A DNA stretch of 64,000 bases from assembly GCA_046297835.1 (NCBI GenBank), contig JBKBHI010000001.1:391354-455353 (forward strand), read 5' to 3'. The DNA comes from Alphaproteobacteria bacterium (GTDB lineage Bacteria > Pseudomonadota > Alphaproteobacteria > SMXQ01). Under the pieces are notes generated by a model that made no database searches, was not told the DNA's origin, and saw nothing but the letters and a program-made list of their open reading frames with translations. Below, in pieces: positions 23,375-62,374 of this stretch (positions are counted from its first letter, which is position 1; each line of letters begins with the position of its first letter). A program made the position numbers and the translations under genes.

Positions 23375-23405
23375 GGATGAGGCTTCCCACCCTGGGAAGG
23401 TCAAT
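23375..23405 (-). promoter_or_regulatory. CueR/MerR-type promoter (TTGACC, 19-bp spacer with dyad CTTCCCA-N3-TGGGAAG) reading towards copZ
   Basis: Dyad read at 23384-23400. TTGACC on the minus strand at 23400-23405. 19-bp spacer. Confidence 0.5.
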
Positions 23406-23428
23406 TGCTTCCGTGTGATTTTTTCCGT

Positions 23429-23459
23429 TTGACCTTCCTATCGTTGGAAGGTTCATACC
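23429..23459 (+). promoter_or_regulatory. CueR/MerR-type promoter (TTGACC, 19-bp spacer with dyad ACCTTCC-N7-GGAAGGT, then CATACC) for copA
   Basis: Strongly resembles the E. coli PcopA architecture (TTGACCTTCC...GGAAGGTT). Lies about 80 bp upstream of copA. Confidence 0.6.
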
Positions 23460-23537
23460 TCATGGCACTCGGCCTTATAACGGAGAGAAATCATACAATC
23501 GCCACAGAGCATTTCCCTAGATATCCCAATAAATGGA

Positions 23538-26054
23538 ATGACTTGCGCGAGTTGCGTCGCCCGAGTCGAAAAGGCCATCCAGGCTGTTTCGGGCGTTACG
23601 GCTGTAGCGATAAATTTGGCCGCCGAGCGCGCGCACGTCTCCACCGAAACGGCGGACAATCTGAGTGAGATCGCCAATGCGATTCGGTCGGCGGGATACG
23701 AGCCGGAAGAACGCGCCATCGAGTTGGCGATCAGCGGCATGACCTGTGCGAGATGTGTCGTTCGTGTCGAGAGAGCGCTCTTTGCGGTGCCCGGTGTCGT
23801 CTCTGCGTCCGTCAATCTCGCGACAGAGCGTGCGACCGTGCATGTCATCGACAGTGCGCTGAAGACAGCTGCTCTCATCGGATCAATCAAGCAAGCCGGC
23901 TACAGCGCTGAAGCGATTATCGGCGGACAGCCCGATCTCGCAGAGCACGAAGCGGCTAAGCGCGCTCATGAGCTTCAGTTTCTAAAGCGCTCCACAATTG
24001 TGGCAGCTGCGGCGACCGCCCCACTATTTATTGTCGAAATGGCTCTTCATACAATTCCGGCGGCGCATCACTGGCTCGCCGGCACCTTAGGCGAAACGAA
24101 CTGGCACATAATCAGTTTCGTCCTAGCCACCATTGCGCTGTTCGGACCTGGACTAACGTTCTATCGCAAAGGCGTGCCGAACCTACTGCGACTGACCCCC
24201 GACATGAATTCCCTCGTGGCACTCGGCGCCACGGCGGCATGGGCCTTCTCGGTCATTGCGACGTTCTTGCCAGATGCACTTCCAGCTGGAACAGCAAACG
24301 TCTACTACGAAGCGGCGGCTGTCATCGTGACGCTGATCCTGCTCGGCCGCTGGCTTGAAGCGCGCGCCAAGGGGCGGACAAGCCAAGCAATTAGGCGCCT
24401 GATGACCTTGCAGGCCAAGACGGCTCGCGTCGTCCGCGGTGGTGCGGTTGTGGATGTCGCGATCGACGAGGTCCTATCCGGCGACATTATCGATGTGCGG
24501 CCCGGCGAGCGGATCGCGGTGGATGGCCACGTGACCGAAGGATCCTCGTACATCGACGAGTCGATGATCACCGGCGAGCCGATCCCGGTTCATAAGAGTC
24601 AGGGAGCGAGCGTCGTCGGCGGGACGGTCAATCGCACGGGCGCATTCCGCTTCCAGGCCGACAAAGTCGGGGAGCAGACCATGCTGGCTCAAATCGTTCG
24701 TATGGTTGAGGCGGCGCAGGGCGCCAAGCTCCCCATTCAGGCTTTGGTCGACAAGGTCACGGCTTGGTTCGTCCCCGCCGTCATCGCCGCCGCCGTCGCG
24801 ACCTTTATCGTCTGGCTTGCCTTCGGCCCGTCGCCGACGCTCAGCTACGCCCTGGTGAATGCAGTTGCCGTTCTCATTATCGCCTGCCCCTGCGCCATGG
24901 GGTTGGCGACACCGACCTCGATCATGGTTGGGACCGGCCGCGCGGCCGAGCTCGGCATTCTGTTCCGCAAGGGTGAGGCGCTTCAGTCCTTGCGCGACGT
25001 GACCATCGTGGCGCTCGACAAGACCGGGACTCTTACGCAGGGCCGCCCGCAGTTGACGCATATCGAAACGACCGAGTCCTTCGAGAAGGACGATGTGCTG
25101 GCATTGGTTGCAGGCATCGAGAGCCGCTCCGAGCATCCGATTGGCGAAGCCCTCGTTGAAGCGGCGAAGGACCGTGGCCTAGACGTGGTTGCCCCCACAA
25201 CGTTCGACTCCGTGCCTGGATACGGTGTGGATGGCGAAGTGGACGGACGCCGGATTCAAGTCGGCGCCGATCGCTACATGGCGAAGCTTGGCCTCGACAC
25301 AGCGATCTTCGCCAACGCGGCCCGGCAGCTAGGCGACCGCGGCGAAAGTCCGCTGTTCGCCGCAATCGACGGCAAGCTAGCCGCGATCCTCGCGGTCGCC
25401 GACCCGATCAAAGAAACCACGCCAGACGCCATCAAGGCACTGCATCGCCTGGGCCTGAAGGTCGCCATGATCACCGGAGACAACCACCGTACGGCAGAGG
25501 CCGTTGCTGCCAGACTTGGAATCGATGAGGTCGTGGCAGAGGTACTGCCTGCGGGCAAGGTCGAGGCTGTAAAATCCCTGCAAAGTGCTGACCGACGCGT
25601 CGCCTTCATCGGCGACGGCGTGAACGACGCGCCAGCACTCGCACAGGCCGACGTTGGCATTGCCGTCGGAACTGGGACGGATATCGCCATCGAAAGTGCC
25701 GACGTGGTGCTGCTGGGCGGCGACCTGCGTGGCGTAGTGAATGCGATCGAGCTAAGCCGTGCAACGATGCGCAATATCCAGCAGAACCTGGTCTGGGCGT
25801 TCGGCTACAACACGCTGTTGATCCCTGTGGCCGCCGGAGCTCTCTATCCCATTTTCGGCTTGCTCTTGTCGCCGATGCTCGCGGCTGGTGCCATGGCGCT
25901 ATCAAGTGTCAGCGTCCTGTCCAATGCCCTCCGCCTTAAGAAGGTGACGCCGGCAATACATATCCATAAGACCGCTGCCGGGCCGCATGCTCGCAGAACT
26001 AATGGACGCTGTGGCAGCCTAGTCAACATGCCTCCGCATTATAGCCGGCGGTGA
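23538..26054 (+). CDS. copA: copper-translocating P1B-1-type ATPase with two N-terminal HMA domains
   Basis: MTCASC and MTCARC metal-binding sites. CPC transmembrane motif ([13 protein letters not shown]). DKTGTLT and GDGVNDAP. The first HMA beta-strand (ISLDIPING) is encoded in-frame upstream of the only ATG, with no canonical start. Confidence 0.9.
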
Positions 26055-40265: not shown

Positions 40266-40751
40266 ATGCAACGCGATATTTCAAAAATAGCCTTAGATAT
40301 TGGCTCTCTGAACGGCTGCTCCCTTGCCCAATTACAGGCGCAATGGACGACCCTTGCGAGTAAGCCCTTAAAGGGGGCTCGGCGTGACTTATTGCAGCGC
40401 GCCATTGCTTACCTTTTGCAAGACCAGGAAGGCGGCGGCCTCTCAGCAAAAACGCGCCAGCGCTTAGGTCAGTTGGCTAAAACTTATGCCAAGGATCGTA
40501 GCGCCCAGGCCCAGATGGCGCCCGATCTCAAACCGGGCTGCCGGCTCCTCCGCGAATGGCAAGGCGTCATGCACGAGGTCGTCGTGCTGGAACAGGGCTT
40601 TCAGCACGATGACCGCACCTACCGCAGCCTCTCGGAAATCGCGCGCACGATCACCGGCACGCGCTGGTCGGGCCCACTGTTCTTTGGTTTGAAGAAGCCT
40701 GCTGGCACGGCGCAGCCATCGCACGCCGGTAAGATCAAGGCAGAGCGATGA
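40266..40751 (+). CDS. DUF2924-family protein (recombinase-associated)
   Basis: 161 aa directly upstream of a large serine recombinase, overlapping it by 4 bp. This pairing is typical. AAGGAGG ribosome-binding site. Confidence 0.55.
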   Translation: MQRDISKIALDIGSLNGCSLAQLQAQWTTLASKPLKGARRDLLQRAIAYLLQDQEGGGLSAKTRQRLGQLAKTYAKDRSAQAQMAPDLKPGCRLLREWQGVMHEVVVLEQGFQHDDRTYRSLSEIARTITGTRWSGPLFFGLKKPAGTAQPSHAGKIKAER

Positions 40752-42451
40752 GCGCGCCTAAAGTTCTGCGCTGCGCCATCTACACGCGCAAATCGTCGGA
40801 GGAGGGGCTTGAGCAAGAATTCAACTCTCTCGACGCCCAGCGCGAGGCCTGTGAGGCTTATGTCCTGAGCCAGCGTCATGAAGGCTGGCAGGCGCTCGAG
40901 ACGTTGTACGATGACGGCGGCTATTCCGGCGGCAATATGGAGCGTCCCGGGCTGGTGCAACTGCTTGCCGATGTCCGGGCGCGCAAAGTCGATGTCATCG
41001 TTGTCTATAAGGTCGACCGGCTCACGCGCGCCTTGTCGGACTTCGCCAAGATCGTCGAGACGCTGGACGGGCATGGCGTTTCCTTCGTCTCGGTGACGCA
41101 ACAATTCAACACCACCAGCTCGATGGGGCGGTTGACGCTCAACGTGCTGCTGTCCTTTGCCCAATTCGAGCGCGAGGTCACAGGCGAGCGCATTCGCGAT
41201 AAAATTGCCGCTTCGCGCAAGAAAGGCATGTGGATGGGTGGTCCGGTGCCGCTCGGCTACGACCTGGTCGATCATAAGCTGGTGATCAACGAGCCCGAGG
41301 CGACGACGGTGCGGCAGATCTTCGAACGCTACGCTGAACTGGGCTGTGTCCGCAAACTCAAGGCCGCACTCGACGAGGCCCAGATCGTGAGCAAGCGACG
41401 CGTAACCGCGGGCGGCCGGGCGTCGGGTGGCCAAGCCTTCGGTCGCGGCCAGCTCTATCATCTGCTGCGCAACCGGCTCTATCTCGGCGAGGCGGTGCAT
41501 AAGGGAACATCCTACCCAGGGCAGCATGACGCGATCATCGCGCCACGGCTATTCGAGGAAGTGCAGGCGACGCTGGCCGCCAATCGCGTCGCGCGTCGTG
41601 ATCGCCAGGGTGCCGCGTCGCCGAGCCTGCTCGCTGGCTTGCTCTTCGACACGGACGGCCAGCGCTTCACGCCGAGCCACACCCAGCGCCATGGCCGGCG
41701 CTATCGTTACTATGCCGCAGCTCAGCCGGCGGACGAGGGCGCCTCACAGGCCGGCCGGCTGCAGCGGTTGCCGGCGGCGCAGATCGAGGCCATCGTCGAG
41801 GGCGAGCTGAGCCGCTTGCTGGCGACGCCGTCCGAGCTTCTGAGTTATCTGCCCGGCGCGCCCGCGGTCCTGACCCACGCGGTTCTCAGCGGTGGGGCCG
41901 CTGCGGCGATACGCTGGTCGGCGGCCGCGGCACCCGCGCGGGGGACACTGCTGCGCGCTGTGCTACGCCGGGTGACGGTAAGCGCCACGCAGCTGCGCCT
42001 GACCGTCGACTTGCCGGCGCTGTGGCGGATACTGCTGCCTCTAGAGCAAGCCGAGGCCGCCAGCGCCTTGGCGCCGGCGACGCTCGAGATCGAACGGCCG
42101 GTGACTCTCAAGCGCAGCGGTCGTGAGACCCGGCTCTGGGTCCCTGGCGCCAACGCGCCACGGCAAGTGGCCAAGCCCAATCCGGCGTTGATCAAGCTGG
42201 TGGTCCGCGCTCATGACTGGTGGGGGCAGTTTCGGGCGGGGCGCTCGACGCAGGCGATTGCCAACGCGCTCGGCCTCAACCGCAGCTATATCGCGGCAGT
42301 GATGCCGCTCGCCTTCTTGGCGCCAGATCTGGTTGAGGACATCCTGGCCGGCTGTCAACCGCCGGGCTTACAGACCAAAGACCTGATGGACCTGCCATTA
42401 GAATGGGCGGCGCAGCGCGCGCTCCTCGCGGCGCGCGCTGAAGGTATCTGA
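40748..42451 (+). CDS. large serine recombinase
   Basis: Resolvase catalytic domain (AIYTRKSSEEG...DAQRE...VIVVYKVDRLTR). Recombinase domain. Long C-terminal coiled-coil/Zn region. 567 aa. Confidence 0.85.
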   Translation: MSAPKVLRCAIYTRKSSEEGLEQEFNSLDAQREACEAYVLSQRHEGWQALETLYDDGGYSGGNMERPGLVQLLADVRARKVDVIVVYKVDRLTRALSDFAKIVETLDGHGVSFVSVTQQFNTTSSMGRLTLNVLLSFAQFEREVTGERIRDKIAASRKKGMWMGGPVPLGYDLVDHKLVINEPEATTVRQIFERYAELGCVRKLKAALDEAQIVSKRRVTAGGRASGGQAFGRGQLYHLLRNRLYLGEAVHKGTSYPGQHDAIIAPRLFEEVQATLAANRVARRDRQGAASPSLLAGLLFDTDGQRFTPSHTQRHGRRYRYYAAAQPADEGASQAGRLQRLPAAQIEAIVEGELSRLLATPSELLSYLPGAPAVLTHAVLSGGAAAAIRWSAAAAPARGTLLRAVLRRVTVSATQLRLTVDLPALWRILLPLEQAEAASALAPATLEIERPVTLKRSGRETRLWVPGANAPRQVAKPNPALIKLVVRAHDWWGQFRAGRSTQAIANALGLNRSYIAAVMPLAFLAPDLVEDILAGCQPPGLQTKDLMDLPLEWAAQRALLAARAEGI

Positions 42452-42472: not shown

Positions 42473-43096
42473 CTATTTCTTATCGGCCGGCTTATCAAGG
42501 CTCCAGGTTAGGGTGCCGCGCACGATGGCCGCATATTTTTCCGGACTGAGCGGCAACTCACCACTGTAAAGATAGCCCTCGGTCTCCTTGCCCGTACCAT
42601 CGACAAGACGTGTGGCCGGAGTCTTATAATTTCCGGCCAGAGTAAAGCGTCTATTTTCGACACTGAACCCGTCGTTATCTTCAAATTGCAGTTGGAGGAA
42701 ATTGCCGTCCTTCTCCCAATATTTTTTCCAGTCGGGATCGATCAGATCCGCTTGGCTGATGGTCTTGACCTGACCCTCGATTTGAAATTCGAACAGCAAC
42801 GCATTCTCGCGGTATTTCACTGTGAGGGTAGGTTCTAAGCCGCGGATCGGCCGGACAGTAAGCACCTTGGCGCGCGATAGTTTGGCCAGTTCGCTTTCAT
42901 CGTAGCGTTTGAGCTCGAGCAGGCGGCCGCCTTCACGCACCAGGGTTTGGCCAGTTGCCTTGTTGAGCAGATAGACATCGCCTTTGACGTCTTTGATCTC
43001 ATATCGATCGCCACGGCCGGTGAGATCTTCGAGGCAGCCGGTCAGCAGTGCGGCGCAGGCGGCGAATGCCGCGAGTTTCCAATAGAGCATAGTCAT
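42473..43096 (-). CDS. hypothetical lipoprotein
   Basis: Lipobox LLTGC after the signal peptide MTMLYWKLAAFAACAA. The alternative ATG at 43090 has better ribosome-binding-site spacing. Confidence 0.45.
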   Translation of the reverse strand: MTMLYWKLAAFAACAALLTGCLEDLTGRGDRYEIKDVKGDVYLLNKATGQTLVREGGRLLELKRYDESELAKLSRAKVLTVRPIRGLEPTLTVKYRENALLFEFQIEGQVKTISQADLIDPDWKKYWEKDGNFLQLQFEDNDGFSVENRRFTLAGNYKTPATRLVDGTGKETEGYLYSGELPLSPEKYAAIVRGTLTWSLDKPADKK

Positions 43097-43439
43097 CTCC
43101 CCGGTTGACTGGGGCAGCGGCCCCATGGTCCTAGTATCGCGAGGGGAGGCGAGGCAGTCGAGCGCAAGGGGAGTGGGGAGCGATGCCAGATTGGCTTTCC
43201 GTAACGTCCGTTCTGCGGTCGTCGGTGCGCGCGGCGCCGGTGCTTCGCAAATCCAAAGAGTTAGATGTCGGAAGGGGTTAGCTGGTAGGCATGGCGACTG
43301 ACATGTCTCGGCATCCTTGCGCGTGGCCCTTCCAAACCCTCTGCCATTGCAGATGACAGAGCGCAGCGTTATGCGCGATTTGCGCATCAATTGCCCCGTG
43401 CAGCCCGTATCCGCTTGGTTAAGATGGGAGGGACCATTC

Positions 43440-43455
43440 GGGGGGGGGGGGGGGG
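43440..43455. repeat. 16-nt homopolymeric G tract (poly-C on the minus strand)
   Basis: Read directly at the junction between the metal module and the AT-rich module, about 100 bp 3' of the HTH-ImmA gene stop. Confidence 0.9.
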
Positions 43456-43558
43456 ATGGCACATGTGGCGGCACACAAAAAACCAACCACTCAACACCCC
43501 TTGCGCTGTGTGCAAACAGGCTTGCGTTTGGGTTATTATGCTCGCTTATGTCTGAGAG

Positions 43559-44734
43559 TTAGTTTTGCTGCATCTCAAATAAGGTACGCAAAGTACCGCG
43601 CTCAATTAGGCGTGAGAATTTTTTGTAATTTTGATGATCTCGTTGCCAGCGGCCTGCGACTATCGCGATGTTTACTCGGGCCTGAATCGATAATGAAGTT
43701 ACGTCGTCCTGACTCATGTCGTGAGCCCAATGAAATTGAGAAAGGATGTCGCTCGGAATAAGCGACTCTTGTGCCAAGAGATCGGCTTCACGCTCATAGG
43801 CATCATCACTATTGATTTCAATATCATCAATAAATGCTGAGCCAGACTCTCTCAGATAATCGTAATGCAGCGAGATGTGCGCCAGCTCGTGCAGAAGTGT
43901 AAACCAGAAGTTATCGAGGCGATCGTGTCGCAATGTGAGTCCTACGACCGGCCGACTTGCCGCGTCGACCATTGCAGCGCCATCGAGAAATGTTCCGGGA
44001 AGTGGCGGCAGTATCACGACACAAATCCCAAGTTTAGCTAGATGAGTAATCACGCGAGTAGGCCCATCAGTTCTGGCGCTAATCCTTGCTACAGACCGTA
44101 ATTCGGATGATCCGAATTTAGACTGTTCAAAAGTATTCTTAAGGCGCTGGTTCTCGCTTTTTCTGACTACTGCAGCTTGCCAAAGCAAAAGAGCATGCTG
44201 GTCTGTTTTTGACGCAGCACGTTGCGTTCTGGTTTTGCGAAGTAACGCGGGAGAAAGGTTTGTTTGAGCAACCGGGCTTAAAAAAGCATCTAGCTCTTTA
44301 GGCCCAACTTTAAAGCCCATAGAACTTAAGCGATTAAGTGCGGGAGTAGACTCGCTTTCAAAACTCTTATCAGCTCTGCTCGAGATAAGAGATTCGTAAG
44401 GTATGCCGAGGCCCTGATGTAGTGAGCGGATCATATCAATTGATAGTTGTCGCTTACCTGAAAGCACCTCGGACACGCGTGCGCGTGAACCTATAAACGG
44501 CTCTAACTGCTTCGGTGAAAGGCCGAGAGCATCCATGCGAAATTTTATCGCTGCGATAGGGGATGGGGATTCAATGTGAAAATATTTTTTTTCATATTGC
44601 TCGATGAGAGTCGCAAGGACCTCGATCTCATCATCGTAATTAAGATTGTTGCTGGCTTGCAGCAGATCCTTGATGCGACTCTTCGCGTCTTTCAGATCAA
44701 TTTCGGTGCGAATGGGTTTGATCATCGGATTCAT
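43559..44734 (-). CDS. HigA-like HTH antitoxin fused to an ImmA/IrrE-family metallopeptidase domain
   Basis: XRE HTH (LGLSPKQLEPFIGSRARVSEVLSGKRQLSIDMIRSL). HEXXH motif (LLHELAHISLH). Start overlaps the higB stop (ATGA). Confidence 0.75.
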   Translation of the reverse strand: MNPMIKPIRTEIDLKDAKSRIKDLLQASNNLNYDDEIEVLATLIEQYEKKYFHIESPSPIAAIKFRMDALGLSPKQLEPFIGSRARVSEVLSGKRQLSIDMIRSLHQGLGIPYESLISSRADKSFESESTPALNRLSSMGFKVGPKELDAFLSPVAQTNLSPALLRKTRTQRAASKTDQHALLLWQAAVVRKSENQRLKNTFEQSKFGSSELRSVARISARTDGPTRVITHLAKLGICVVILPPLPGTFLDGAAMVDAASRPVVGLTLRHDRLDNFWFTLLHELAHISLHYDYLRESGSAFIDDIEINSDDAYEREADLLAQESLIPSDILSQFHWAHDMSQDDVTSLSIQARVNIAIVAGRWQRDHQNYKKFSRLIERGTLRTLFEMQQN

Positions 44735-45021
44735 TCCTCAGCAACTAATGAGACCGTGAGGTCTGCTACTCGAATTTCGGTCAACAGCACTATCCCTCGG
44801 CGGAAATCCATGAGGGTTTCGACGTCGATGGCCGGGTTTGGAAACGAGAACACCACGATCGGTGGGGAGCGTACGTCGGCGTATTTGAAGTCCCTAAGAA
44901 GGGCATGCGTTGATTCCCAGGTGCGGCAACGCATCTCTGCCGCCCACGCCCGCAGCATTTCTCCAGTCCTTGGGTGACTTCGAATGAAGCCATGTAGCTC
45001 CATTTCACCTAAGAAATTCAT
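44731..45021 (-). CDS. higB: HigB-family (RelE-fold) toxin
   Basis: 96 aa located upstream of the HTH antitoxin (toxin-first order). The pattern ...HPRTGEMLRAW...FKYADV... resembles the HigB toxin family. Confidence 0.6.
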   Translation of the reverse strand: MNFLGEMELHGFIRSHPRTGEMLRAWAAEMRCRTWESTHALLRDFKYADVRSPPIVVFSFPNPAIDVETLMDFRRGIVLLTEIRVADLTVSLVAEE

Positions 45022-45035
45022 CCGCTTATCCTAAT

Positions 45036-45052
45036 GCTCCCATGTCGGGAGC
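45036..45052. promoter_or_regulatory. operator-like perfect palindrome GCTCCC-ATGTC-GGGAGC (copy 1)
   Basis: Read directly. Lies 14 nt upstream of the higB start codon, just before its AGGA ribosome-binding site. Confidence 0.6.
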
Positions 45053-45085
45053 TATTTTATAGACGAGTGATCCACGCTTGTATAT

Positions 45086-45102
45086 GCTCCCAATACGGGA
45101 GC
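45086..45102. promoter_or_regulatory. operator-like perfect palindrome GCTCCC-AATAC-GGGAGC (copy 2)
   Basis: Read directly. Lies inside the spacer of a putative plus-strand promoter (TTGTAT...TTTAAT) that would read into the downstream 3-gene operon. Confidence 0.6.
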
Positions 45103-45125
45103 ACTTTAATCCAGTGAGGTGGTTC

Positions 45126-45590
45126 GTGACGCGTTTCACCGTTTTTGGAAAGAGCCTGGATGCAAACGAGCAGCAGGCTTTAAGGAAATTCGCCGAGCAA
45201 GCAGCGGGCAAAGGGGATGAGGTTAGTTTTGCCGCGTCCATTGGCGAGCCCGATCCCTCTGTCGATAGCGAAGTCGTTCTGGTTTTGGGAACGGCAAGTA
45301 CGTGTGCTAGCGCCGATCTCGCCAATGATTTGCAGCTGGCTGCAAATGGTGCCCGGCGCATCATCTGGGTTTGGCCGGAGGGCGTAGGCGAATGCGAGCT
45401 GCCTTCAGTCGTCAGGACTTACGCCTATTCGATCATCGTTTGGAATGTGGGGAAGTTAAAGTCGGTCGCAGCCGACGATGATGCGAGGTGCTTTGAAGCA
45501 TCGACGGGGGAGGCCCTGCCTAAAGTCGAAACTGAACGAAATCTCTGTGCCGATGTTGAGGCCGAAAACCCCAAGGCTAAAACAAAGTGA
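45126..45590 (+). CDS. hypothetical protein, possible Rossmann-like (SLOG/TIR-like?) nucleotide-binding fold
   Basis: GTG start with a GAGGTGG ribosome-binding site; the annotated TTG at 45078 or ATG at 45084 would lie inside the operator. VVLVLGTAS...ADLANDLQLAANGARRIIWVWPEG is reminiscent of SLOG/LOG-type folds. Low certainty. Confidence 0.4.
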   Translation: MTRFTVFGKSLDANEQQALRKFAEQAAGKGDEVSFAASIGEPDPSVDSEVVLVLGTASTCASADLANDLQLAANGARRIIWVWPEGVGECELPSVVRTYAYSIIVWNVGKLKSVAADDDARCFEASTGEALPKVETERNLCADVEAENPKAKTK

Positions 45591-46219
45591 ATTTATTCTC
45601 TTACGTCGTAGAGCACGATCTTGGGTTCGCTCCGAATCCATTTCACGGATTTTGCACGCTTGCTTGTTGCAAGCCGGAGATCCGTAAAAAAGCGAAAGAG
45701 GGTGACTACATAATTGGCACCGGTGCAACAAGGCCGGGGCTTCTCGGGCACATCACCTATTGGATGCGTGTGGATGAGATTCTGACCTTCGATGAATATT
45801 GGAGTGACCGCCGCTTCCGTTACAAGAAGCCCTACATGGAAGGCACTACCATGTTGCGCTACGGCGACAACATTTATCACCGAAGCGGCGGTAAAGATTT
45901 TCAGCAAGAGGATTCATTCCACAGCCATGAGGATGGCAGCCTTTCTCGTGGTGATTTAAAGCGAGATACCCAAAAGACGGAGAGGGTTCTTATAGGGCGT
46001 GACTTTTCGTATTGGGGGCGTAACGGAATACTGTTGCCGGAACACCTGCAGTGCCTTGTGAAAAAAGGACCTGGGCATAAGTGTCGATTCACTGAAGAGC
46101 AGATAGCTATGTTTCATGCTTGGTTGAGCAATCAGCGTGAACGTGGCTTTAAGGGGGAGCCGGCTCATTGGCAATTTATTGGACAGCTCAAGCGCCGGCC
46201 TTCCCGGGCTCGGAGGTGA
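45587..46219 (+). CDS. Nmad2-like (nucleotide-modification-associated domain 2) protein
   Basis: The N-terminus MNLFSYVVEHDLGFAPNPFHGFCTLACCKPEIRK matches, from memory, the conserved start of the Nmad2 family. The start overlaps the upstream stop (ATGA). Confidence 0.5.
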   Translation: MNLFSYVVEHDLGFAPNPFHGFCTLACCKPEIRKKAKEGDYIIGTGATRPGLLGHITYWMRVDEILTFDEYWSDRRFRYKKPYMEGTTMLRYGDNIYHRSGGKDFQQEDSFHSHEDGSLSRGDLKRDTQKTERVLIGRDFSYWGRNGILLPEHLQCLVKKGPGHKCRFTEEQIAMFHAWLSNQRERGFKGEPAHWQFIGQLKRRPSRARR

Positions 46220-46222
46220 TAG

Positions 46223-47881
46223 ATGAGGCCTATCGACTACGACCAATTCGTTCGCAAAACCGATCAATATTCTTTGAAGGCCCCCAAGGAGCGTCATGCA
46301 ATTGCTTTGTATGGGCTTGTGGGCGAGATCGGCTCTTTAATCTCGGCCATAAAAAAGAAAATATTGGCCGAGGGTGGTGAGGCTGATTGGGATCAACCAA
46401 ATAAAGAGATCAAAGAAGAGATAGGGGATGTGCTTTGGTACTGCTACTCGCTTTCTCAAATCGTCAATGCGACATATTTTGATATTCTAACGAACGATAT
46501 TTCAGTCCTAAGACGCGAGATCGAGGGAGGCAACGAACGGGCTGAGAAAATTAGTGCGGCGCTCGCGGCGCTTGATCCAAAAAGTAAGAACGAATTTCTT
46601 TCAGCCGCGGCGCTCTTTCCTATTTCAAATGACTTTTCATTTGATGCTTACCAAGCGCTTGCATTCAAAACTGCAAGAACGGACGGAATAATCCTTCTCG
46701 AGGTTTGCTTGGCTGTCTTGCCGCAATTAGGTGCGGAGCTTTTGCGCTCGACACTTCCCGAAGTGGAGTTGACCCTTAATAAAAATATTGCCGACCGTGC
46801 GCCCAACGTTGTTTTGGGTGAGGTGGCTTGGCATCTATCTGCAATCTCAAGCCTCTATAATTTATCGCTAAATGACGTTGTCGATTTTAATTGTCAGAAA
46901 GTAAGTTTCAGATCGGAGAGGGGGAATCCTGCCTCTCTTCATGATGAGGGACGAAAGGAGCAAGAGCAGTTTCCTCGAAAATTTAGCATCACGTTTGTCG
47001 GTATTGAGAAGGGCCTATCAAGGATGTACTTCGAAGGCCATCGACTGGGAAATGACCTAACAGATAATGCGAAAGAGGATGATGGTTATCGTTTTCATGA
47101 CGTGCTTCACCTGTCGCTCATTGGGCATCTAGGCTGGTCGCCAGTTTTTAGAGGTTTTATGAAGAAGAGGCGTCCCGACGTTGATGAGGTCGAGGATGGT
47201 GGCCGGGCTAAAGTGGTTGAGGAATTGGTTATCAAGGCCATTCACTCTGAAGGAGTGAGTCAGGCGAGGGAATCAGGCAGATGCTCTGTTGGCACTCCGA
47301 TGCGTTTGTTTCCTGAGAAAAGCACCATTCCCTTCAGGCTTTTGAAAACCATAGATTTATGGGTTGAAGATCTCGAGGTCCGCCAGAACAGATTCTGGGA
47401 ATGGGAGGATGCAATTCATGAAGGTTGCGAGATTTTCTTTAAGCTGTGTGAGCATGGCCAAGGCACTGTGCACGTAGATTTAAAAAATCGCAGTCTGACT
47501 TTTGAGTCTTTGGTAACGCCTGGCGTTCAGGGGTTAACTGTTGGGCTTGGCATGGGAGTAGGTGATGCCAGCGCAGGAGGCATACTTACTGAGGTGGATA
47601 AGACTTTCGCAGAAGGGCTGTCTGGTCTCGCTCAGGTGGTAGCAGCAAAGCGAGCGCTATTCGAAGCACTGGGATTGTCGAACCCGCCGGTCTCAATGTG
47701 GTTGCAGGTTGATATTCGCGTGGTCGACGGAAATAAAATATCTGTGAGTGCCAGGGGCGACGTGCAGGAGCGCATATGGAGCATGCAAGTCGTCGACTAC
47801 AAAGCTGCTTTCGTCAATATGACTGATAACGTGTTGTGCACTATCGCTGCGATTGCAGATGTTGAAGATCTAAGAAAATGA
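46223..47881 (+). CDS. fusion protein: N-terminal MazG-like all-alpha NTP pyrophosphohydrolase domain plus about 440-aa uncharacterised region
   Basis: HAIALYGLVGEIGSL...EIKEEIGDVLWYCYSL fits the MazG/HisE EExxE/D signature. The remainder has no recognisable motif. Begins 3 bp after the previous stop. Confidence 0.55.
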   Translation: MRPIDYDQFVRKTDQYSLKAPKERHAIALYGLVGEIGSLISAIKKKILAEGGEADWDQPNKEIKEEIGDVLWYCYSLSQIVNATYFDILTNDISVLRREIEGGNERAEKISAALAALDPKSKNEFLSAAALFPISNDFSFDAYQALAFKTARTDGIILLEVCLAVLPQLGAELLRSTLPEVELTLNKNIADRAPNVVLGEVAWHLSAISSLYNLSLNDVVDFNCQKVSFRSERGNPASLHDEGRKEQEQFPRKFSITFVGIEKGLSRMYFEGHRLGNDLTDNAKEDDGYRFHDVLHLSLIGHLGWSPVFRGFMKKRRPDVDEVEDGGRAKVVEELVIKAIHSEGVSQARESGRCSVGTPMRLFPEKSTIPFRLLKTIDLWVEDLEVRQNRFWEWEDAIHEGCEIFFKLCEHGQGTVHVDLKNRSLTFESLVTPGVQGLTVGLGMGVGDASAGGILTEVDKTFAEGLSGLAQVVAAKRALFEALGLSNPPVSMWLQVDIRVVDGNKISVSARGDVQERIWSMQVVDYKAAFVNMTDNVLCTIAAIADVEDLRK

Positions 47882-48964
47882 ATCGGCAATCCGTCGATTG
47901 ATTTTCCATTTCGGTGGATACCATGGAGCAAGCAAAGAGCCAGCACTCGTATATTTCTGTTTAATTCGAGTGCGGCCGGCTATCCCTCCATATTCTGGAA
48001 AAGCGACGCGTGCATACTTAGAGATTTCGCAAAAAATATTCTGGCAGTCGATCAGCTTGAGGGCGCGTCCCCATAGCGATTTGAAATTAATTTCTAGATT
48101 AGAAAAATGATACTCTTGATTGTCCCGCATGTAGCGAATTACGTCGGCGGGATCGAGCTTTGCGTCGCTTTGAAAGCATTTTGAGATGCCGTCAAGAGCT
48201 CCGGGGCCGGCCATTACAAAGTCATCCTCGCTGAAATTTGTGAGGGTGCTGTAATTTAAATCAGTCGCGAATTGGTAAGCTAAAAATGGCCCAATCGAAG
48301 GTGCCGATAGGAGCAGTTTAAAAGCATCTGACATGCTTCGGCACTCGGACAGGCGAATTGAGAAACCATCTTTGATTAGCTGCTCAAGCATGCGCAGGTG
48401 GTTTTGATGCTTTAGCGGGTGGCCAAAAACATTCCCTGCGGATGGCATGATGTAAGCGGCGGAATATATCCGTTCACCCTTGGCCATATGCCGCGACAAA
48501 ACTTTATCGAAAAGATCGTAGTTAAAAGTTTCCCAAGTGAGCTTTCCGAATTCCGCTTCTAGAAGCTTCCAAGTTTCGATTTTGTTAAACAACTTGAAGA
48601 GGAGAATTCGAAAAAATAGATCGTTTCTCGAGTCCGGTAAATCGTCTCTGTAAATGACATCTCGAATAAGAAACTGGCTTACGCGATCGGATGCCCGATA
48701 CGTATTCGTAAACTTAAAGCTTTTTAGAATGGGGTCGTTGGTTAGTGCGGTGTTTGTCCGGTCTAAGCGACGGAAGAAAATATTCTGACGTTCTGCAGCA
48801 AACCGCCAATACGCATAAAACACGGGAGTAGTAAGAACTTTTTGTCCCGCAATCGTTATGGCTTCAGATGCGGGGCTGCTCACCTTGTTGCTGAAATCGA
48901 CATCGAGCTGAAGTGAATCAGCACTCGTTGATTTTTGCGAGGCATTGGTAGATTTGTATTTCAT
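47870..48964 (-). CDS. hypothetical 364-aa protein (candidate DNA-base-modification enzyme?)
   Basis: Convergent with the MazG-fusion gene and overlapping it by 12 bp. No confident family assignment. The idea of an aGPT-pyrophosphorylase / hypermodification-type protein is suggested only by neighbourhood. Confidence 0.45.
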   Translation of the reverse strand: MKYKSTNASQKSTSADSLQLDVDFSNKVSSPASEAITIAGQKVLTTPVFYAYWRFAAERQNIFFRRLDRTNTALTNDPILKSFKFTNTYRASDRVSQFLIRDVIYRDDLPDSRNDLFFRILLFKLFNKIETWKLLEAEFGKLTWETFNYDLFDKVLSRHMAKGERIYSAAYIMPSAGNVFGHPLKHQNHLRMLEQLIKDGFSIRLSECRSMSDAFKLLLSAPSIGPFLAYQFATDLNYSTLTNFSEDDFVMAGPGALDGISKCFQSDAKLDPADVIRYMRDNQEYHFSNLEINFKSLWGRALKLIDCQNIFCEISKYARVAFPEYGGIAGRTRIKQKYTSAGSLLAPWYPPKWKINRRIADSFS

Positions 48965-48981
48965 ATTTGCAGTGCAAAACG

Positions 48982-48995
48982 TTTTTTTGGGGGGG
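48982..48995. repeat. T7G7 homopolymer pair next to a near-palindrome TTTGCAGTGCAAA
   Basis: Read directly in the upstream region of the 364-aa gene, at the boundary with the umuC remnant. Confidence 0.8.
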
Positions 48996-49075
48996 TGAGG
49001 ATTTATAGCATTTTGTCCCGTTGGAGCGATTAATAAGTCGGGAGATATGCGTTTGAACAGGTAACTATTAGGGCC

Positions 49076-49590
49076 GTGACGCGCTCGTTCGGTCGGGCTG
49101 TGACTATGCTCGACGAAATGCGGGAGGCCGTTAGCTTCTATGCGACGCGCGCAGGGGAGAAGCTACGTCGCGCAAATCAGGCGGCCGGCTATCTCAGCAT
49201 GTTCATGCACACGAATCGGTTCAACGGCGATCCTAGCCGCAGCGCTTCGGCCGTCGTTCGCTTCCCTGAGCCGACCAACGACACCGGCGAGCTAGTGGCG
49301 GGCGCCCTACGCGTTGTTGAGTCGATTTGGCGCGACGGCTTCCGATCTCAAAAGCGGGCGTGATTACCACGGACCTTGTGCCGGCCGGCGAAGGGCAAGC
49401 TTCGCTGTTCATGGAGAAGCGCCGCGATCTGCGACTCATGATCGCTATAGATAAGCTCATTGCCAAGATGGGGCGAGGGACAGTCATTACCGCCGTAACC
49501 GGCATTCGGCGCGGGTGGTTCTTAAAGGCCGCGCATCATTCGCCCCCGTTCATACGGGCGGGCGCTCGTCGCGTCGAGACGAAAAGCGCG
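49076..49590 (+). pseudogene. umuC: 5'-truncated, frameshifted remnant of Y-family polymerase gene umuC
   Basis: Two frames carry the UmuC C-terminal ('little finger') region: ...MLDEMREAVSFYATRAGEKLR...PTNDTGELV... and ...AGVITTDLVPAGEGQASLFMEKRRDLRLMIAIDKLIAKMGRGTV... The catalytic N-terminal roughly two-thirds is absent. Frames switch near 49340. Confidence 0.6.
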
Positions 49591-49593
49591 GGA

Positions 49594-50901
49594 CTAAGCG
49601 AGCAGAGCTTCCTCGTCGCGCATATCGGTGAACTTACGGCCGGTCTCAGCGTGTACGGCATCCAGGCCCATCGCAATCAGCCTTTCGATGATGACGTCGC
49701 AATAGGCAGGGTCGAGCTCAATGCCGTAGCCGGCACGTCCGGTCTTTTCCGCGGCGACCAACGTCGTTCCGCTGCCGCAGAAAGGGTCGAGCACGATGCC
49801 GCCGCGGTTCGAGCAATCCAAGATAGCGTCAGCGACCAGAGAGACCGGCTTCACAGTCGGGTGCGAAGCGAGGTCCTTCATCCTGTCCTTGCCGAAGCTG
49901 TTGGCGCCCGCATAGGTCCAGACATTCGTCCGGTTGCGCCCGTGCTTGCCGAGCTCTACGTTATTGATGTGGGCGGCCGTGCCGTTCTTGAAGACGAACA
50001 CGCATTCGTGCTGCGAACGGTAGAGGGATCCCATCCCGCCGTTCGTCTTCACCCAGACGCACATGTTCTTCACTTCGCTATAAGCGCTTCCGGCGATCAC
50101 CATCTCGCCAAGGTGCCGCCAGTCGATGCAAATGTAGTGGATCGAACCATCCGTGCTGTGCTCAACCAGCAAGTTAAAGACGGTAGACAAGAAGCTCGTG
50201 AACTCAGGCGATGTCATTTCCCCGGACGCCATCGCAAACTCTCGGTGCTGAGTTTGGCCCAAGCCGGAAACGTGCCCCTGGATCGGGACGTTGTAAGGAG
50301 GGTCAGTGAAGACCAGGTCCGCCTTCGCGCCGGCCAGAAGCCGCTCGTAGCTTTCCGGCTTGGTGGCATCGCCGCAAAACAGCTTGTGCGGGCCGATGAG
50401 CCAAAGGTCACCCGGATTCGTGATCGCCGAGCTATCGAGCTTAACCGCGGGAATCTGCTCTCCGAGATTGTTCGAGGCATTCTGCTCGTTGATCAGAACA
50501 TCAATGTCGGCAGCATCGAAGCCCGTGACGGTCAAGTCGAGATCGGGGGCGATCTCTTCGAGTTCGATGAACTCCAAGGCCAACAGCTCACGGTCCCAAC
50601 CCGCTTGCTCAGCAAGGCGGTTATCCGCGATGACGTAAGCCCGGATTTCGGCCTCCGAGAGATCTTCGCGTCTGAGGATGGGGATCAGCGGCATGTTCAA
50701 GAGCTTGGCTGCTTCGACACGGCCGTGGCCGGCTATGATGACGTTCGTGCCGTCGACTAGGACGGGCACAGTGAAGCCGAAGCGCTTGATGCTATCGGCA
50801 ATCTGCTGAATCTGCTTCTTCGAGTGTGTTCGCGGGTTGCGCTTGCGGGGATGCAGATCTCCCGGGGAGCAATAGGAAATGCTCAGCAGCGACATTGTCA
50901 C
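49594..50901 (-). CDS. ParB-like nuclease domain fused to an N6/N4 DNA methyltransferase
   Basis: N-terminal ParB/Srx-like domain (RKRNPRTHS...IIAGHGRVEAA). Methyltransferase domain with DPPY (FTDPPYN) and SAM-binding FCGSGTT. Confidence 0.8.
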   Translation of the reverse strand: MTMSLLSISYCSPGDLHPRKRNPRTHSKKQIQQIADSIKRFGFTVPVLVDGTNVIIAGHGRVEAAKLLNMPLIPILRREDLSEAEIRAYVIADNRLAEQAGWDRELLALEFIELEEIAPDLDLTVTGFDAADIDVLINEQNASNNLGEQIPAVKLDSSAITNPGDLWLIGPHKLFCGDATKPESYERLLAGAKADLVFTDPPYNVPIQGHVSGLGQTQHREFAMASGEMTSPEFTSFLSTVFNLLVEHSTDGSIHYICIDWRHLGEMVIAGSAYSEVKNMCVWVKTNGGMGSLYRSQHECVFVFKNGTAAHINNVELGKHGRNRTNVWTYAGANSFGKDRMKDLASHPTVKPVSLVADAILDCSNRGGIVLDPFCGSGTTLVAAEKTGRAGYGIELDPAYCDVIIERLIAMGLDAVHAETGRKFTDMRDEEALLA

Positions 50902-60767: not shown

Positions 60768-61907
60768 ATGGCCGAGCAAATTCCCATAACTCCAGCGCTT
60801 CTCACTTGGGCGCGTGAGCGTGCCGGCTTGAGCCCAGATGAAGCCGCACAAAAGTTTAAGCGCTTTGCCGACTGGGAGGCTGGGATATCATTTCCAACAT
60901 ATTCCCAGCTTGAGCAAATCTCTGACACGCTGAAGGTACCAATTGCGGTTTTTTTCTTTCCAGAACCGCCTCAAGTACCGCCTATCGCTGAAACATTCCG
61001 TACTTTGCCCGATGCCGAATTGGCTTTGTTGCCAAGTCGGCTTCGTATGCTGCTTCGCAAGGCGAAGGCTATGCAACTTAATCTGTGGGAATTAACACAA
61101 GGTCGCAATCCGGCAGAAAAACTTATTACTCGTGATTTGGCTTTCCCGGCTGAAGTTGACATCGCGACTATGGCCTCTGCCGTACGCGACTATATCGGTG
61201 TGTCAGTTGCTGATCAGAGGCGCTGGGGAGATGACGAAACTGCGCTTAAGCAGTGGCGGGCGGCTTTGTCGAAAGTCGGAGTTTTTGTATTTAAAGACGC
61301 ATTTAGAGTTGATGATTTTTCGGGTTTTTGCCTCTATGACGAAGTCTTTCCTATAATTTATGTAAATAATAGCTGCGCTAAAACACGCCAGATATTTACT
61401 TACTTTCACGAACTCGCTCATTTGATTTTTCATACGAGCGGTATCGATACGATTCACGATTCCTACATCCCGCGCCTTGAGCAAGGCGCTCGGCGAATAG
61501 AGGTTTTATGTAATAGTTTTGCTGCTCACTTTTTGCTTCCGGAGCAAGAATTTGCGGCTGCGGTTGTTGGACTCGAAGCTTCAGAAGCTACGGCAGAGCG
61601 CCTCGCGGCACAGTTTCATGTTAGCCGTGAAGTGATATTCCGCCGTTTCTTGGATCAGGGCCGAATACAGCAACAGCAATATGCGGCTGCGGTAGCTAGG
61701 TGGAATGAGCAGCGCAAAGGCGGTGGTGGGCCAGGTGGGGACCATTATTGGACCCAGTTAACTTATCTTGGGCGCGACTATGTATCGCTTGCTTTGCGGC
61801 AGTTTCATCAAAATCGAATCGATGAAAATCAGCTTGCAGATTACCTTAATGAAAAGCCGAAAAACGTCGGCGTGCTTGAAGAATACTTCGAGCGAGGTAA
61901 CGCATAA
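60768..61907 (+). CDS. HTH (XRE) plus ImmA/IrrE-family metallopeptidase regulator
   Basis: N-terminal HTH-like region, HEXXH (YFHELAHLIFH) and a conserved downstream Glu. Stop overlaps the next gene's start. Confidence 0.75.
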   Translation: MAEQIPITPALLTWARERAGLSPDEAAQKFKRFADWEAGISFPTYSQLEQISDTLKVPIAVFFFPEPPQVPPIAETFRTLPDAELALLPSRLRMLLRKAKAMQLNLWELTQGRNPAEKLITRDLAFPAEVDIATMASAVRDYIGVSVADQRRWGDDETALKQWRAALSKVGVFVFKDAFRVDDFSGFCLYDEVFPIIYVNNSCAKTRQIFTYFHELAHLIFHTSGIDTIHDSYIPRLEQGARRIEVLCNSFAAHFLLPEQEFAAAVVGLEASEATAERLAAQFHVSREVIFRRFLDQGRIQQQQYAAAVARWNEQRKGGGGPGGDHYWTQLTYLGRDYVSLALRQFHQNRIDENQLADYLNEKPKNVGVLEEYFERGNA

Positions 61908-62374
61908 TGTACGTTTTCGACACTGCGCCTCTCTCCACGCTATTTAAAAACTATTACCGCAATCGCTTCCCCACTTTGTGGGAGCGCTTTGACGCATTGA
62001 TTGATGAAGGGCACATTGTCTCTACGCGAGAAGTTTTGCGCGAGGTGAGAGACGGTGCTGTGGAAAGTTTGCGTCTGTGGGCCGTGGATAAGCAGGAGTT
62101 ATTTTTTACTCCGACGGCAGCAGAGGCTGCCTTTATCGCGGGTATTTATGGCGTCGCGCATTTTCAACAAAACATCGAACAGAAAAAATTGCTTAAAGGC
62201 GGCCGCAACGCAGATCCTTTTGTAATAGCTAAAGCGGCAACAGAAGGGCGTGCTGTGGTTACAATGGAATTGTTTAAACAGAACGGCGTAAAAATCCCTA
62301 ATATCTGTGGGCACTTCGGAGTTCCCTGCTTAACCTTGGAAGCATTCATGGAGCAGGAAGGTTGGGCCTTTTAG
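61907..62374 (+). CDS. DUF4411-family (PIN-like) protein
   Basis: The start MYVFDTAPLSTLFKNYY and the size fit DUF4411. It is the usual partner of ImmA/IrrE-HTH proteins. Confidence 0.65.
   Translation: MYVFDTAPLSTLFKNYYRNRFPTLWERFDALIDEGHIVSTREVLREVRDGAVESLRLWAVDKQELFFTPTAAEAAFIAGIYGVAHFQQNIEQKKLLKGGRNADPFVIAKAATEGRAVVTMELFKQNGVKIPNICGHFGVPCLTLEAFMEQEGWAF

Follow-up and report, generated by a model that had tools for sequence, protein, structure and literature searches.

The 64-kb window analysed here, a stretch of 64,000 nucleotides of alphaproteobacterial DNA, contains a pair of minus-strand genes (A and B) that face away from a nucleotide-centred four-gene cassette, with two palindromes of identical arms in the intergenic region between them. 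This arrangement raises the question of whether the palindromes are genuine regulatory sites, which protein would read them, and whether they govern the A-B pair alone or the neighbouring cassette as well.

Two palindromes in a divergent intergenic region

The region separating gene A from the first gene of the divergent operon is 104 nt long and holds two conserved sites (Table 1). Both palindromes reported in the initial annotation are exact, and no further match to GCTCCC-N5-GGGAGC occurs in the 64-kb window even when one mismatch is allowed. The further particulars given for them are borne out: an ATG precedes each palindrome on the plus strand, creating the shared aTGCTCCC flank, the distance put at about 50 bp is exactly 50 bp between palindrome centres, and the palindrome placed just upstream of the gene A ribosome-binding site (RBS) ends 3 nt before the AGGA of that site (45029-45032), with the gene starting at 45021. 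At the other end, the second palindrome stops 23 nt short of a GTG codon at 45126.

Single palindromes of the 6-N5-6 type are unremarkable in the window (40 observed, ~25 expected under a first-order Markov model), and a pair with identical arms within 100 bp was found in none of 200 Markov-simulated windows, in line with an analytic expectation of ~1e-4. A chance origin of the pair is ruled out by these simulations, by the uniqueness of the motif in the window and by its conservation across loci. Because they are conserved across species, the palindromes are regarded as real sites, and from the sequence comparisons described below they are very probably operators of the A-B module; they are termed operators 1 and 2 in what follows.

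Table 1. Coordinates of the genes and putative operators of the divergent locus within the window.
Feature	Coordinates	Strand	Description	Support or remarks
Gene B	43559..44734	-	391 aa, Xre-type HTH (~60-115) and ImmA/IrrE M78 peptidase	PADLOC PD-Lambda-2_B
Gene A	44731..45021	-	96 aa, HigB-like, PD-lambda-2_A family	PADLOC PD-Lambda-2_A, E 1.3e-10, residues 1-84
Operator 1 (putative)	45036..45052		Palindrome GCTCCC-ATGTC-GGGAGC = GCTCCCATGTCGGGAGC	Core TCCC-N5-GGGA 45038-45050; adjoins HigB-like gene A
Spacer between operators	45053..45085		33 bp	
Operator 2 (putative)	45086..45102		Palindrome GCTCCC-AATAC-GGGAGC = GCTCCCAATACGGGAGC	Core 45088-45100; adjoins divergent operon
First divergent-operon gene	45126..45590	+	154 aa, flavodoxin-like fold, TIR-like / nucleoside 2-deoxyribosyltransferase-like	GTG start, GAGGTGG 45116-45122
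Nmad2 (nucleotide modification associated domain 2)	45587..46219	+	210 aa	Pfam PF18753, E 1.8e-66; start overlaps preceding gene's stop
MazG + MazG_C protein	46223..47881	+	552 aa	Pfam PF03819 and PF18722, E 2.4e-53; syntenic
HMUDK_hel protein (5-hmdU DNA kinase helical domain / aGPT-Pplase-like)	47870..48964	- (convergent)	364 aa	Pfam PF18723, E 5e-105

Genes A and B resemble components of PD-lambda-2

Genes A and B had been described as a HigB/HigA-ImmA toxin-antitoxin pair, and part of this description is retained. The pair is a bicistron with the toxin-type gene first, where the stop codon of A overlaps the start codon of B (ATGA); the nearest relative of the B helix-turn-helix (HTH) is E. 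coli HigA (5ifg_B, E 1.6e-4), and the profile of the A family matches the E. coli HigB structures 5ycl_B/5ifg_A (E 5e-5). What does not hold is the equation with a plain HigBA system, as the match is instead to PD-lambda-2 A/B, with B aligning to the PADLOC PD-Lambda-2_B profile at E 9.9e-115 over residues 4-389 of its 391, and as A lacks a C-terminal THxEYD motif. Canonical PD-lambda-2 A proteins and E. coli HigB share this motif, whereas the A protein of the window has EIRVADL at that position and the A proteins of all alphaproteobacterial relatives are likewise without it. The HigB-like "toxin" of the window appears degenerate, and a search of Pfam and NCBIfam with gene A returned zero matches.

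The B protein carries the Pfam domains HTH_3 and Peptidase_M78 (3.8e-9), and its HELAH motif (residues 282-286) is intact, with H282, E283 and H286 invariant in comparisons with 22 and 15 homologues. In the public record, B starts 3 codons later and is 388 aa long. For E. coli PD-lambda-2, all of A, B and C are needed for defence, and it is overexpressed B that is toxic and A that rescues, opposite to what the names HigB and HigA imply (Vassallo et al. 2022, PMC9519451). By analogy, the toxin and antitoxin labels are doubtful for A and B of the window, because the published PD-lambda-2 work has B as the toxic partner.

No PD-lambda-2 component C was found among the neighbouring genes with PADLOC, and tblastn searches of the whole window with two C proteins gave nothing below E 0.3. 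An ORF downstream of B (42473-43486) was considered as a further member of the system and set aside, as it is conserved in no homologous locus. In a metagenome-assembled genome (MAG) of Afipia (locus L004, 5713-5990), the A gene is frameshifted, with B and both operators intact. A scan of viral contigs for relatives of B gave none that was confirmed.

The divergent cassette and its surroundings

The 154-aa product of the first divergent gene matched nothing when Pfam and NCBIfam were searched. A Thoeris partner, ThsA, was not found beside this gene, whose neighbours are by Pfam the Nmad2, MazG-MazG_C and HMUDK_hel genes. The order of the cassette is shared with 14 other loci, L001-L010 from Bradyrhizobium, Afipia and other alphaproteobacterial genomes together with L027-L030, and it is the same wherever the contig reaches; the cassette is complete in L001-L010, and a contig end interrupts the short L028-L030. 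The carriers include the cultured strains Bradyrhizobium betae Opo-243 (L001), Bradyrhizobium sp. LMG 9283 (L002) and Afipia massiliensis DSM 17498 (L006). Protein identities are 38-71%.

The HMUDK_hel gene is transcribed separately, and the interval upstream of it (48965-49075) contains no TCCC-N5-GGGA site. It is linked to the cassette in every locus with enough sequence, and in two loci it is found on the other side of A-B, still linked (L008, 7259-8188; L028, 3325-4269). This relocation with retention of linkage suggests that the HMUDK_hel protein is functionally part of the cassette, even though its gene has its own transcript and no operator.

The block as a whole has a GC content of 48-50%, as opposed to 60-68%, and so constitutes a low-GC island. 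On one flank (40266-42451) lie a large serine recombinase and a small ORF upstream of it, and on the other (49076-50901) a ParB_N-N6/N4 DNA methyltransferase and, judged by eye, a C-terminal umuC fragment (49076-49363). The flanking recombinase and the methyltransferase/umuC fragment suggest that the block is an integrated mobile island.

Conservation of the sites across loci

Relatives of the locus were collected by a scan of a genome collection with an alignment of B homologues, which yielded 21 full-length loci, and by a metagenome scan that contributed a further 80 loci among the matches listed. Of the 600 metagenomic stretches listed as matching the pattern, at least 558 were confirmed, and the B family itself is large, with >5,700 relatives at E <= 1e-10 among 8,000 candidates scored.

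In an alignment of the intergenic regions of 11 loci, whose proteins are only 35-70% identical, the invariant blocks are mainly the TCCC and TGGGA of both sites, with only scattered single columns conserved elsewhere. Operator 1 ends 13-15 nt from the A start codon in 11/11 aligned loci. The centres of the two operators are 49-53 bp apart, and exactly 50 bp apart in 8 of the 11, and in the homologues 24-54 nt separate operator 2 from the divergent start codon.

Sites were then counted in 89 loci by searching the 135 nt upstream of A for TCCC-N5-GGGA, with no more than one mismatch allowed. By this rule, a site is present upstream of A in 75/89 loci, compared to 5.6% of control windows taken from the same loci, and the sites are found from Alphaproteobacteria to Ignavibacteriales, Patescibacteria, Syntrophaceae, Schekmanbacteria and Bacteroidetes. 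All 15 loci of the TIR-like/Nmad2/MazG class have two sites, at a spacing of 49-53 bp (exactly 50 bp in 11). For the class where A-B is divergent from operons encoding ubiquitin-like or Multi_ubiq, E2, JAB and ThiF/E1 proteins, two sites are found in 10 of 16 loci (L012, L014-L016, L045, L047, L049, L054-L056), at 59-63 bp. The two main divergent-cargo classes therefore differ in spacing by approximately one helical turn. Operons of the ABC type mostly have one site (17/26), with two or more in 5/26 and pairs spaced by 20-31 bp or 51-53 bp, and the 30 unclassified loci have one site in 16 cases and two in 7, mostly 25-27 bp apart. Spacings thus fall into the discrete classes 25-27, 49-53 and 59-63 bp.

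Site number therefore tracks gene architecture strongly, not absolutely, with counts that are confounded by phylogeny. A strict rule, by which two sites would occur if and only if there is a divergent operon, is broken by exceptions among the metagenome loci. In the ABC (5/26) and unclassified (7/30) loci with two or more sites, which have spacings including 25-27, 51-53 or 61 bp, no regulated divergent operon was identified. Since two sites are also found in relatives with no recognisable divergent operon, a second site on its own is no proof that a neighbour is controlled.

The canonical PD-lambda-2 operons are informative as to where such sites lie relative to promoters. Each of the A-B-C operons in L017-L021, the loci from the five non-alphaproteobacterial lineages named above, has a single TTCCC-N5-GGGAA site, to which operator 1 of the window corresponds. 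Good sigma-70-like promoters can be identified in L017 (TTGACA-17-TATTAT), L019 (TTGACT-17-TAGTAT) and L020 (TTGACA-17-TATTGT), and in these three loci the core of the site starts 0-2 nt after the -10 hexamer, which is a classic repressor position. A further arrangement is seen in L011, where the genes divergent from A-B encode HNH, a membrane protein, ThsB_TIR and TIR, with sites that are degenerate, TTCCAT(A/T)ATGGA.

The protein most likely to read the sites

The sole DNA-binding domain detected by Pfam in the conserved module is the HTH of B, which accompanies the site whatever the cargo, and this HTH is most likely the reader of the palindromes. From phylum to phylum, the recognition helix of this domain (in the window, SRARVSEVLSGKR) is almost unchanged, matching the invariance of TCCC/GGGA. 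Moreover, B and the sites covary: when residue 85 of B is alanine, the base 5' of TCCC is other than T in 84 of 88 half-sites, and when it is serine, the base is T in 53 of 66 half-sites. Such covariation is suggestive of direct readout of the flanking base, with the reservation that it is confounded by phylogeny.

A parallel is provided by E. coli K-12, where GTTGCCAATCTGGCAAC and ATTGCCAATTTGTCAAC flank the -10 region of the higB promoter as two TTGCCA-N3-TGGCAA palindromes, which we read from the sequence as putative HigA operators. The K-12 sites have the same 6-N3-6 geometry as the sites of the module and differ from them by one base per half-site.

Start codon and candidate promoters of the divergent operon

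The initial annotation proposed the GTG at 45126 as the start of the first operon gene, and comparison with homologues supports this choice. The aligned position is an ATG in nine of ten homologues and a GTG in the other, the N-termini that follow are homologous (M-R/T/A-R/K-hydrophobic-x-I/V...), and the public record holds the 154-aa protein. Upstream of the GTG, the in-frame stretch is unconserved and in three loci is interrupted by stop codons. The competing TTG/ATG start said to be annotated inside the operator is no annotation at all; it is merely the mechanical longest ORF.

The promoter that had been proposed for the plus strand fared less well. The hexamers TTGTAT (45078-45083) and TTTAAT (45105-45110) exist, with a spacer of 21 nt rather than the 16-19 nt of sigma-70 promoters, and the combination was picked up by neither promoter scan and is unconserved in the alignment. 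The best match of the consensus scan on the plus strand is TAGACG (45060-65)-17-TATGCT (45083-88), and on the minus strand it points to TATACA (45084-79) with TATAAA/TAAAAT (~45061-45054), beside operator 1. These spacer candidates match the consensus weakly (8-9 of 12), differ between lineages and are unconserved in the Bradyrhizobium loci, and a stricter promoter scan of the region called no promoter. If the candidates are taken at face value, we infer that both promoters would sit in the 33-bp spacer and point outward, each reading through the operator on its side, as in the canonical operons with one site. The placement of the promoters in the spacer is nonetheless a guess, because the hexamers are weak and unconserved among alphaproteobacterial loci.

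The position of operator 2 relative to transcription does not depend on any of these promoter calls. With 23 nt between the end of operator 2 and the GTG, part of them taken up by the GAGGTGG of the RBS, the plus-strand transcript must have its start either within operator 2 or further upstream, placing operator 2 in the path of plus-strand transcription.

A model of dual control and its alternatives

A model that starts from the existence, conservation, position, spacing and number of the sites, and from their co-occurrence and covariation with B, would treat the palindromes as paired B operators that silence both A-B and the divergent operon. One B dimer would bind each TCCC(A/G)-N3-TGGGA site, possibly together with A, and the 33-bp spacer bracketed by the sites would hold the core promoters of the two transcription units, both firing outward. 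Operator 1 would lie over the start of the A-B transcript, leading to autorepression, and operator 2 over the start of the TIR-like/Nmad2/MazG transcript, leading to its repression, such that occupation of the pair would silence A-B, the genes of the regulator, along with the candidate defence operon. An infection or DNA-damage signal would then activate the peptidase domain and inactivate the HTH, releasing both promoters. Binding by B and repression of both promoters are suggested by sequence comparison, and proteolytic release would follow by analogy to ImmR/ImmA and CapH/CapP. We regard this model as probable. Among the points that count against it, a spacing of 50 bp corresponds to ~4.8 helical turns, which does not put the two dimers on the same face of the DNA. 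In addition, B may be more than a repressor, because in E. coli PD-lambda-2 it is toxic when expressed alone and is rescued by A (PMC9519451).

The model extends control to the neighbouring operon, and it is possible to account for two sites without this extension if both palindromes serve cooperative autorepression of A-B only and the TIR-like/Nmad2/MazG operon is expressed independently. Precedents exist, as two sites occur in loci where no divergent cargo was found (at 51-54 bp in L067, L085, L087 and L096, and at 25-27 bp in L064, L065, L071, L084, L091 and L102), two palindromes are likewise seen in the higBA promoter of E. coli K-12, and the binding of P. aeruginosa HigA requires both of its palindromes (PMC6987408). 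However, plus-strand transcription starts in operator 2 or crosses it, given how close the site is to the divergent start codon; two sites at a fixed spacing are present in every locus of the cargo class as opposed to the single site of most ABC operons; and the spacing is specific to the class (50 as opposed to 59-60 bp), which suggests a fit to the divergent unit. Control of A-B only is the main alternative, albeit an unlikely one. Somewhat less likely again is the suggestion that B is not the sole reader of the operators, which would be recognised by a host factor or by an A-B complex that is obligatory and whose cooperativity depends on the ratio of its partners (conditional cooperativity). 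Co-repression by the partner protein is seen in many type II toxin-antitoxin systems. The overlap of the A and B reading frames at ATGA provides for translational coupling of the two proteins, and A neutralises B in E. coli (PMC9519451), both of which would fit a complex. The Afipia MAG with the frameshifted A gene nevertheless retains both sites, a host factor is difficult to reconcile with sites that travel with A-B across six or more phyla, and a recognition-helix residue of B covaries with the operator flank.

It is very improbable that the palindromes act at the level of RNA, whether as a terminator-like element or as hairpins in the 5'-UTRs. Hairpins of 6-7 bp (-12 to -14 kcal/mol) can be folded from either palindrome, operator 1 is directly 5' of an RBS, and a terminator scan gave a terminator-like match on the plus strand, consisting of 45036-45052 followed by TATTTTAT. 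The fold energies are however unremarkable when set against shuffled controls (z ~ -1.5), and the second palindrome has no T-run. The TCCC/GGGA bases are invariant across phyla and show no covariation, and the outer stem positions vary on one arm only (GGTCCC...GGGATC, GATCCC...GGGAGC), which would create mismatches in a stem. Outer changes confined to one arm around inner bases that do not change are the pattern expected of recognition of DNA by a protein, not of an RNA stem. An intrinsic terminator at 45036-45052 was rejected for the further reason that there is no plus-strand gene for it to terminate, none ending ahead of it, and the feature that is conserved is the sequence rather than the pairing.

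Relationship to known regulatory and defence systems

The proposed paired control of regulator and neighbour by B has counterparts in several described systems, each of which differs from the window in some respects. The closest is PD-lambda-2, with which it shares a HigB-like A and a B composed of an Xre-type HTH and an M78 peptidase, the overlapping order of A then B, and the TCCC-N5-GGGA motif that is present in the canonical relatives. The window differs in being without component C, a P4 beta-like protein, in having a divergent nucleotide-centred four-gene cassette and a second operator, and in the absence of THxEYD from A. Classical HigBA systems have in common with the window a toxin-type gene in first position, a HigA-type HTH and palindromic sites, putative operators, in the promoter of the pair itself, and in P. 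aeruginosa HigA also controls a second promoter via the same palindrome (PMC6987408). Unlike the classical systems, the "antitoxin" B has a peptidase domain and is in PD-lambda-2 the toxic partner, and the second operator of the window faces another operon.

CapH/CapP modules regulate CBASS, DISARM and other defence operons, and they also exist as fusions that follow a toxin-like (vapC-like) gene. Without exception they lie divergent from the operon under their repression, which is relieved by DNA damage through proteolysis (Lau et al. 2022, bioRxiv 10.1101/2022.04.27.489752). The arrangement in the window is similar, in that an HTH and an ImmA-like zinc peptidase are encoded upstream of, and divergent from, a neighbouring operon. 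The PADLOC match to capP in the window is weak (3.4e-8), and B belongs to a different and much larger family, distinguished from CapH/CapP by a HigA-type HTH, a conserved linker of 110 residues and a HigB-like partner.

In ICEBs1 and phage-like elements, the Xre repressor ImmR controls a divergent promoter and is inactivated by its cognate M78 peptidase, ImmA. The module in the window likewise combines an Xre-type HTH with an M78 peptidase whose HExxH motif is intact, it has putative operators in a shared divergent intergenic region, and the same logic is proposed for it. In contrast to ImmR and ImmA, which are two separate proteins, the domains are fused in B, and the cargo of the window is no excision or conjugation operon.

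With regard to the cassette, the published text on DefensePredictor lists a predicted, unvalidated system with aGPT-Pplase, MazG, MazG-C, NMAD and HTH domains (PMC13092281), a domain set that is the same as that of the cassette in the window. The two are probably the same system, judging by the domain list, and that text is silent on operators and regulation. A search of the literature for a published operator or regulatory mechanism of PD-lambda-2, or for an operator of pairs of HigB-like and Xre-peptidase proteins, found none in the papers covered.

Implications for the A-B family

A broader and more tentative reading is that PD-lambda-2 A/B could be a portable infection-sensing switch rather than a toxin-antitoxin pair, with one near-universal operator (TCCC-N5-GGGA) placed before at least four unrelated effector cassettes and a second operator when the cargo is divergent. 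The four cassettes would be C (P4 beta-like); the ubiquitin-like/E2/JAB/E1 genes; HNH with TIR; and the TIR/deoxyribosyltransferase-like, Nmad2, MazG-MazG_C and aGPT-Pplase-like genes of the window. The second operator would be positioned at a phase-preserving distance of 50 or ~60 bp. If this is the case, C would be one of several interchangeable effectors, and the cassette in the window would represent a regulated nucleotide- or DNA-modifying defence system of an experimentally unvalidated kind. Cassette swapping behind one regulator-operator pair would also allow new defence effectors to be found through guilt by association.

The regulatory logic is already known from HigA, ImmR/ImmA and CapH/CapP, and since the principle is well known, the finding is useful rather than surprising. 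New in detail are the motif of the operator and the fact that it is conserved across phyla, the fixed and class-specific spacing of the sites, and the occurrence of other effector cassettes in place of PD-lambda-2 C. If B binds the sites, they would provide an operator motif for a large family that includes the experimentally validated PD-lambda-2, as well as a simple handle, through loss of B or a change in TCCC, for switching on the unvalidated TIR-like/Nmad2/MazG-MazG_C/HMUDK_hel cassette in a tractable host.

Other elements in the window

A third match to TCCC-N5-GGGA in the window, at 23385, was considered and dismissed as unrelated, as it lies in the promoter region of a copper-ATPase / MerR-type locus. 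Here, CTTCCCACCCTGGGAAG and a TTGACCTTCC...GGAAGGT element are found at 23383-23460, with a small metal-binding-like ORF on one side and a gene for a P-type ATPase (23538-26054) on the other. The region looks like a MerR/CueR-type promoter and is separate from the paired palindromes.

At 60768-62374, the window also encodes a second Xre-HTH/ImmA-like protein with an overlapping 155-aa ORF following. The protein is 379 aa long, contains HELAH, shows weak similarity to B, and is encoded directly after guaA. The 379-aa protein and the 155-aa ORF resemble the known pairing of an ImmA-like gene with a DUF4411 gene.
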